A stretch of DNA of 64,000 nucleotides from NCBI RefSeq assembly GCF_055900595.2, contig NZ_CM148325.1; one strand, 5' to 3'. The position numbers and the translations under genes were made by a program. A model generated the notes under the pieces. That model saw only the letters and a program-made list of their open reading frames with translations. It did not search any database and was not told where the DNA came from. The stretch's first letter is position 1. The number at the start of each line of letters is the position of its first letter. This document shows positions 61,569-62,082 of this stretch, piece by piece.

Positions 61569-61975
61569 AACAATTTCCCTTCATTGAATGAATGGAGATT
61601 TACCCAAAAACATTTCGGGCGGGATCGAGTATACACAACTAAAGCATGCGAATTACGGCGTGGGGAATTAGTGATGGGGTTTTAAGATAATTGGAATTAA
61701 TATCAAATATAAGTTTCAACTTATATATAAATAAGTTTAAAAATCAAAAAGTTAAAATAAAATCAAAAATGATTGACCTACGTATTTTCCGAAATAACCA
61801 CGATTAAAAATCTATTTTAGGATTAACCTCACGGTATGATTTCTGTTAAATCACAGACAAGGGGATTTATCTGATAAAACAATGCCGACTTATAGTCGGC
61901 ATTGTTATTAAGGTTATTTAATCAATCCTGCTATGTATTAATTGCCGAATACGATGTACATATCGGCATCGACCT

Positions 61976-62054
61976 GTAGGCCTGATAAGATGCGTAAAGC
62001 GTCGTATCAGGCACCAGTTGCCGGATGCGGCGTAAACGCCTTATCCGGCCTACA
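61976..62054. repeat. REP element pair downstream of pgi
   Basis: gtaggcctgataagatgcgtaaagcgtcgtatcaggc and gccggatgcggcgtaaacgccttatccggcctac units. Confidence 0.65.
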
Positions 62055-62082
62055 TATCATCGGCATCAGGTTCGCTCGATGA

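Follow-up and report, generated by a model that had tools for sequence, protein, structure and literature searches.

The pgi-yjbE intergenic spacer of an Escherichia chromosome: a REP pair, the predicted pgi terminator, and the yjbEFGH control region

Described systems and the layout of the spacer

The yjbE region of Escherichia coli K-12, termed locus A, contains two promoters, one IHF site, and two RcsAB sites (Debaugny et al. 2018). The ParB ChIP signal dips at this locus, and the dip persists with rifampicin and in stationary phase, vanishes on deletion of locus A, and was attributed by its authors to the IHF and RcsAB sites (Debaugny et al. 2018). The yjbEFGH genes are described in the literature as activated by RcsA-RcsB, and in Salmonella, according to a dRNA-seq table, transcription of yjbE starts 54 nt ahead of the ATG. 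The spacer that separates yjbE, of an exopolysaccharide operon, from pgi, a gene of sugar metabolism, can also be set beside several known classes of elements. REP/BIME elements consist of two inverted imperfect palindromes of about 35 nt, are extragenic within 3' untranslated regions (UTRs), occur in many genomic copies, and vary in presence among strains. Intrinsic terminators of Enterobacteriaceae, including bidirectional ones, have a GC-rich stem, a short loop, and a T-run on the sense strand, are placed just past the stop codon, and show compensatory evolution of the stem. RcsAB-box promoters, such as those of the colanic acid wza/cps type, have boxes far upstream of a weak -35 promoter and drive RcsA-RcsB-dependent operons. 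All of these properties are shared by the locus described here.

The window analyzed is a stretch of 64 kb, the last 4 kb of which contain yjbH, yjbG, yjbF, yjbE, and pgi, all on the - strand according to the open reading frame (ORF) list. The coding sequences of pgi (62083 to 63732, - strand, with the stop codon at 62083 to 62085) and yjbE (61326 to 61568, - strand) were taken from the ORF list, with the translation in the case of pgi, and both genes are annotated in matching E. coli records, in which yjbF and yjbG lie just beyond them. The spacer between the two genes covers 61569 to 62082 and is 514 bp long, in agreement with the gap of roughly 500 bp given in a first-pass annotation of the window. 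It very probably consists of three ordinary modules, all belonging to the - strand: the pgi 3' UTR with a REP pair, the pgi terminator, and the control region of yjbEFGH. The anatomy, conservation, and consensus matches given below are direct observations on this DNA and its homologs. The spacer is largely annotated already in E. coli K-12, and all of its parts are ordinary and essentially already known. The locus serves as an example of a REP insertion, a terminator, and a stress-responsive promoter packed into 500 bp, as already described for K-12, and its importance beyond annotation hygiene is little.

For comparison, the yjbF neighborhood was obtained from 80 Enterobacteriaceae species, and the pgi-yjbE spacers were cut out, 74 of which were aligned. 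The spacer of the window shares only 92% identity with that of K-12 and 99.8% with that of one dog isolate of E. coli, and its YjbF differs by about 1% from the Escherichia whittamii protein (99% identity), which indicates that the window seems to be derived from an unusual Escherichia lineage.

REP module and terminator downstream of pgi

The 3' UTR of pgi contains a BIME-type REP pair, recognized both by its inverted repeats and by the Rfam family naRNA4. The unit nearest pgi is located at 62018 to 62054 (hairpin 62020 to 62049, - strand), and the second unit, inverted with respect to the first, is located at 61975 to 62014 (hairpin 61980 to 62012, - strand). The outer arms of the pair are found at 61975 to 61989 and 62040 to 62054, and each unit forms its own hairpin. 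The REP pair reported earlier at 61976 to 62054 is borne out by these positions (61975 to 62054) and by the match to naRNA4 (RF02564), which spans 61979 to 62050 and scores 74.7 bits against a gathering threshold of 59.5. naRNA4 is a processed, HU-binding RNA, whereas the copy found here is only a generic Rfam match to a model built on one REP element. In total, four naRNA4 matches are present in the 64-kb window, i.e., three other REP pairs, and several REP cores were found as well. A third, degenerate REP-like hairpin (61944 to 61967, - strand) was detected as a direct repeat with 76% identity to the REP at 62018 to 62034; it belongs to the same variable insert and is formed when the pgi 3' UTR is folded. 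Imperfect direct repeats, TACATATCGGCATC and TACATATCATCGGCATC, flank the REP pair (61957 to 61970 and 62053 to 62067), and the far edge of the REP insert partly repeats the end of pgi. The flanking repeats and the pgi echo may be a trace of the insertion of the module. A small ORF of 46 aa (61942 to 62082, + strand) lies within the module.

The presence of the REP module varies among strains and species. For the query sequence, a median of 27 matching places was found per E. coli genome, and 3,608 of 5,425 E. coli genomes covered at least 80% of the query. Sampled E. coli records with a coverage of about 75% matched it in two pieces, and alignment of one of them, that of E. coli WCHEC020032, revealed the lack of about 160 bp that include both REP units and the third REP-like hairpin. 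The REP-bearing part is also absent from most species in the 74-species alignment, in which conservation begins at the terminator hairpin. Sequence comparison identifies the REP pair as an insert of variable occurrence, situated after the pgi stop codon and before the terminator.

Beyond the REP module lies a palindrome whose arms (61878 to 61890 and 61894 to 61906), each of 13 nt, are 100% complementary and enclose a 3-nt loop. The perfect inverted repeat with 13-bp arms that had been read at 61878 to 61906 is therefore exact. Perfect inverted repeats with arms of at least 13 nt occurred in 0 of 20 composition-preserving shuffles of the window, and the real window has only 8 distinct perfect inverted repeats with arms of at least 11 nt, most of which are shaped as an A-run, a stem, and a T-run. 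The 13-bp stem includes 6 GC pairs, and the hairpin has a free energy of -19.2 kcal/mol on the - strand and -19.7 kcal/mol on the + strand, with z values of about -6.7 to -6.8. On the - strand, the stem has an A-rich 5' flank and is followed by TTGTTTTAT (61874 to 61882), a T-tract interrupted by a G. A simple promoter/terminator scan picked up neither the pgi terminator nor the yjbE promoter, the terminator having been missed because of the interrupting G in its T-tract.

The palindrome with its flanks (61869 to 61906, - strand) is the predicted Rho-independent terminator of pgi. The consensus structure obtained with RNAalifold for 56 Enterobacteriaceae species has 6 stem pairs, 5 of which show changes on both sides and 0 of which are broken. 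The GC core of the stem varies by genus yet always pairs, with GCCGAC/GTCGGC, GCCGGC/GCCGGC, GCCGATA/TATCGGC, GCCAGC/GCTGGC, and GCGTCGGC/GCCGACGC as examples, and the loop varies among genera in both sequence and length. In a count based on the GC core, 57 of 69 species had at least 6 T among the 10 nt that follow the stem on the pgi strand, and only 34 had at least 6 A in the upstream flank. The T-tract is thus commoner than the A flank, which indicates that the element is oriented for pgi, often with bidirectional potential. The hairpin is found downstream of pgi in all genera examined, about 15 to 40 nt past the stop codon in most other genera and in REP-less E. coli (about 20 nt in the E. 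coli record described above). Of the two roles proposed for the palindrome in the first-pass annotation, that of pgi terminator is the one favored by the compensatory stem changes, the T-tract on the pgi strand, and the place after pgi. Unlike usual intrinsic terminators, the element in this Escherichia lineage is separated from the stop codon by the REP module of about 160 bp, and its T-run is interrupted by a G. The A-rich 5' flank makes it potentially bidirectional, and with its near-symmetric A/T flanks it might also stop antisense transcripts leaving the AT-rich region.

Seven genera, including Pluralibacter, have an insertion of about 2 kb between pgi and yjbE (loci L015, L045, L046, L053, L054, L060, and L064; about 560 to 2690 per locus), and that of L045 contains a gene of 485 aa, belonging to the L-fucose/L-arabinose isomerase family and divergent from yjbE. 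In these genera, Rcs-type boxes remain beside yjbE, and a different terminator remains beside pgi. No pgi or yjbE entry appeared in the accessible portions of the supplements and text of the Term-seq study of Adams 2021 or in Colgan 2016.

Another possible 3' end of pgi is the REP pair itself, at which the mature mRNA might end through trimming by a 3' exonuclease or through termination. The REP hairpins are strong, as the 236-nt 3' UTR folds at -90.2 kcal/mol (z = -7.1), and REP elements act as 3' stabilizers. A 3' end at the REP pair would, moreover, be compatible with termination at the palindrome. However, neither REP unit has a T-tract after it, and most genera, as well as at least one E. 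coli allele, lack the module, whereas the hairpin plus T-tract is conserved. An end at the REP pair is therefore regarded as possible but rather unlikely. With the palindrome as the pgi terminator, the REP module would lie within the transcribed 3' UTR and may stabilize the upstream mRNA.

The control region of yjbEFGH

The predicted core promoter of yjbE is found in the block GTTGTGTATACTCGA (61625 to 61639, - strand), which contains the -10 hexamer TATACT (61628 to 61633) and is accompanied by a weak -35. The block is near-invariant in the 74 aligned species, the sole departures seen being single changes at its edges. From the Salmonella start site, transcription of yjbE would begin near 61622, 6 nt after TATACT. 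The poor -35 fits an activator-dependent promoter.

The resulting 5' leader of about 54 nt (61569 to 61622, - strand) is near-invariant and can form two hairpins. The first (61603 to 61619) is maintained through GC, GU, and AU exchanges. In the second, UCUCCAUUCAUUCAAUGAAGGGA (61576 to 61598, - strand), an anti-Shine-Dalgarno-like UCUCC pairs with the Shine-Dalgarno sequence AAGGGA (61576 to 61581); 6 of its 7 pairs are identical in 70 of 70 Enterobacteriaceae species, and the seventh is identical in 69. The fold energy of the leader is unremarkable (z = -0.6), and because the pairs are invariant, there is no covariation to support the pairing. The invariance of the leader suggests a sequence-specific constraint. 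The hairpin over the ribosome-binding site, the regulatory role of which is presumptive, may reflect an unstudied translational control or control by an sRNA or a protein. Being near-invariant in 70 species, the yjbE leader is a cheap target for the study of Yjb exopolysaccharide control.

The Rcs phosphorelay is the main regulator of yjbEFGH and had been overlooked in the first-pass annotation. The RcsAB box consensus is TaAGaatatTCctA, which the boxes upstream of yjbE resemble, and the boxes also fit the RcsB box consensus TN(G/A)GAN4TC(T/C)NA, which has eight specified positions (PMC7913699). Box 0 (TCAGATAAATCCCC, 61861 to 61874, - strand, RcsB/RcsAB type) and Box 1 (TGAGGTTAATCCTA, 61818 to 61831, - strand, the best RcsAB-box candidate) conform to the RcsB consensus, matching 7 of the 8 positions in 59 of 74 and 74 of 74 species, respectively. 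In the background, 2.8% of 18-nt windows score at least 7 of 8. Boxes 2 and 4 are half-sites only. Box 2 (TCGGAAAATACGTA, 61779 to 61792, - strand) is an RcsB-type half-site in inverted orientation, the full 14-mer of which matches 6 of 8 positions in 65 of 74 species, and Box 4 (TTCCAATTATCTTA, 61683 to 61696, - strand) is a proximal half-box of the ATCCTAAAA type, the full 14-mer of which matches only 5 to 6 of 8 positions. The half-site TN[GA]GA is kept in Boxes 1, 2, and 4 in 74, 74, and 72 of the 74 species, respectively, and its variation is confined to degenerate positions of the consensus. Whereas two RcsAB sites are annotated in the K-12 region, three to four conserved box-like elements are counted here. 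A conserved block, TTGTCTGT (61850 to 61857, - strand), is located between Box 0 and Box 1, reads TGTC[CT]GT in other genera, and is explained by none of the consensuses tried.

Relative to the predicted start site, Boxes 0, 1, and 2 lie at about -246, -203, and -164, the IHF consensus lies at about -126, and Box 4 lies at about -68. The upstream boxes are unusually far (-164 to -246) from the start, which distinguishes them from those of RcsAB-box promoters, and a second annotated K-12 promoter could alter these distances. In a K-12 population selected with phage T7, the mutation 4235682 T>C has been reported as a sweep mutation (PMC10044975). This K-12 position (L001 2683) corresponds to 61792 of the window, the first T of Box 2, which all 74 species share. 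Under envelope stress, RcsB~P together with RcsA would act on the upstream boxes, and bending of the AT-rich spacer by IHF would allow the bound activators to reach RNA polymerase at the activator-dependent promoter. The boxes that are bound and the looping of the DNA are what we infer for this locus, and its in vivo occupancy is taken from the K-12 literature (Debaugny et al. 2018). A Reg-Seq preprint describes the motif of an unidentified osmotic-stress activator at yjbJ and ybaY, with yjbE as one of the motif matches (bioRxiv 10.1101/2025.05.13.653802). Since yjbE has conserved RcsB-type boxes, it may be speculated that this activator is RcsB.

The upstream boxes are separated from the core promoter by an extreme AT-rich tract (61680 to 61779), which at 15% GC is the lowest-GC 100-bp segment of the 64 kb (50.9% GC overall). 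The AT-richness that had been called striking is evident from this minimum, and the AT run quoted as an example is present at about 61706 to 61752. A small ORF of 38 aa with a TTG start (61691 to 61807, + strand) falls within this poorly conserved tract. Inside the tract, the predicted IHF site AATCAAAAAGTTA (61742 to 61754, + strand) is an exact match to the consensus WATCAANNNNTTR and is preceded by an AT-rich stretch. The consensus has 8 matches in the window versus 2.5 expected. On the - strand, the block reads YAAnnnnTTGATW; its TTGAT and TAA columns are conserved in the alignment, and only 16 of the 74 species have the exact consensus. The sequence features support the reading of the AT-rich part as the yjbEFGH control region, a regulatory region with binding sites for proteins, among them an IHF site.

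The AT-rich tract might instead be mainly bound and silenced by H-NS, with Rcs and IHF acting by counter-silencing. H-NS generally prefers AT-rich DNA, and 15% GC over 100 bp is the extreme of the window; the transcription-independent exclusion of ParB at yjbE would fit any stable nucleoprotein complex. However, the H-NS high-affinity motif TCGATAAATT has no match with up to 2 mismatches in 61569 to 62082, and in the ParB study the IHF and RcsAB sites were held responsible for the dip (Debaugny et al. 2018). No H-NS binding at yjbE surfaced in the accessible portions of the literature naming both yjbE and H-NS. The tract had also been described as curved, but a wedge-model prediction places its AT-rich core at only the 52nd to 86th percentile of the window, percentiles that are approximate, the model having been run with our own code; strong intrinsic curvature is thus not predicted by this comparison with the window. 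Of the nucleoid proteins proposed earlier for the region, IHF is retained, given the match to WATCAANNNNTTR at 61742 to 61754 and the single IHF site listed for K-12, and H-NS is not, given the lack of a TCGATAAATT match. H-NS binding at the tract is possible but unsupported, and a mainly H-NS-silenced tract is unlikely. The control region is preferably read as one bound by Rcs regulators and IHF.

The STnc430 match and the nature of the palindrome

The Rfam family RF02053 ("Enterobacterial sRNA STnc430") matches the antisense strand at 61765 to 61913 (+ strand), where the predicted sRNA overlaps Boxes 0 to 2 and the terminator. The locus and strand are those of the family, and the score is above the threshold (72.1 bits versus a gathering threshold of 47). 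RF02053 also matches K-12, and of 20 diverse Enterobacteriaceae from different genera, 16 have the match in the corresponding position. The window might therefore encode a genuine sRNA on the + strand, with its promoter inside the AT-rich tract (about 61736 to 61763) and its end at the palindrome, which would then be at least partly its terminator. A promoter-like TTTAAA-16-TAAAAT at this position (+ strand, 9/12, in DNA of 15 to 25% GC) ends 2 nt before the RF02053 match, and the hairpin is just as stable when read on the + strand, where it is followed by TTGTTATTA. However, such promoter-like matches are within chance (1 found versus 2.1 expected), and no equivalent was found in Salmonella arizonae. 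The T-tract is also better conserved on the pgi side than on the + strand side, and the RefSeq annotation of K-12 has no sRNA at this place. The family itself originated as a computational prediction: STnc430 (pgi/yjbE) was entered as "previously predicted" and "not probed," and its read count was 0 in each of the two cDNA libraries (Sittka et al. 2008).

The structure of STnc430 outside the terminator fails the covariation test. In the 56-species alignment, 72.2% of the cells in the body helices are paired versus 72.4% in shuffles, the covariation score of the body is 0.087 versus 0.093 in shuffles, and the antisense consensus fold reaches only -0.77 kcal/mol. Covariation in the region is limited to the terminator hairpin. 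The body instead coincides with inverted protein-binding motifs at the DNA level. Its central helix is formed by Box 2 plus a T-run paired with Box 1 plus an A-run, i.e., by inverted RcsB-type half-sites, and the variable positions of the two boxes do not covary, as perfect complementarity is found in 15 of 74 species versus 27.6 expected under independence. The RF02053 match probably consists of conserved DNA sites and the terminator of the neighboring gene, a separate gene being unlikely, and a genuine sRNA transcribed from the AT-rich tract is quite doubtful. As an unvalidated prediction without covariation in its body, STnc430 was also rejected as the primary explanation of the palindrome. 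Because RF02053 seems to rest on protein-binding sites and the terminator of a neighbor, its matches are not evidence for an sRNA. Rfam matches to AgrB and isrH are far under their gathering thresholds.

A broader reading combines two statements. RF02053 would not be an RNA gene but the pgi terminator together with an array of inverted RcsB/RcsAB boxes that proteins recognize in the DNA. The yjbE promoter, in turn, would be an enhancer-like module that goes beyond its annotation: it would combine three to four conserved Rcs-type boxes and an IHF site with a leader hairpin that is near-invariant, covers the ribosome-binding site, and hints at translational control. This combined reading is considered about as likely as not.

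The palindrome as the DNA operator of a dimeric regulator, the other role proposed for it earlier, is very improbable: it is perfect and directly adjoins the conserved regulatory boxes, but its stem sequences are unlike among genera (GCCGAC, GCCGGC, GCCGATA, GCCAGC, GCGTCGGC, and others) with pairing kept and a variable loop, which is the signature of a structure and not of a recognition sequence, and in the genera with the 2-kb insertion the terminator remains beside pgi and not beside yjbE. The palindrome at 61878 to 61906 is preferably read as the RNA hairpin of the pgi terminator.

Elsewhere in the window, Rfam matches to the SraL sRNA (157 bits, 21941 to 22080, + strand) and to a bacterial SECIS element (87 bits, 1474 to 1528, + strand) were found, both of which are expected in this chromosomal neighborhood. 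The longest palindrome of the window by a wide margin is a perfect one at 18299 to 18356 (GCCCGAGGTAATCTGAAAAAGGTGCAAAAGATTGCACC...), the arms of which measure 27 bp and the loop 4 nt.
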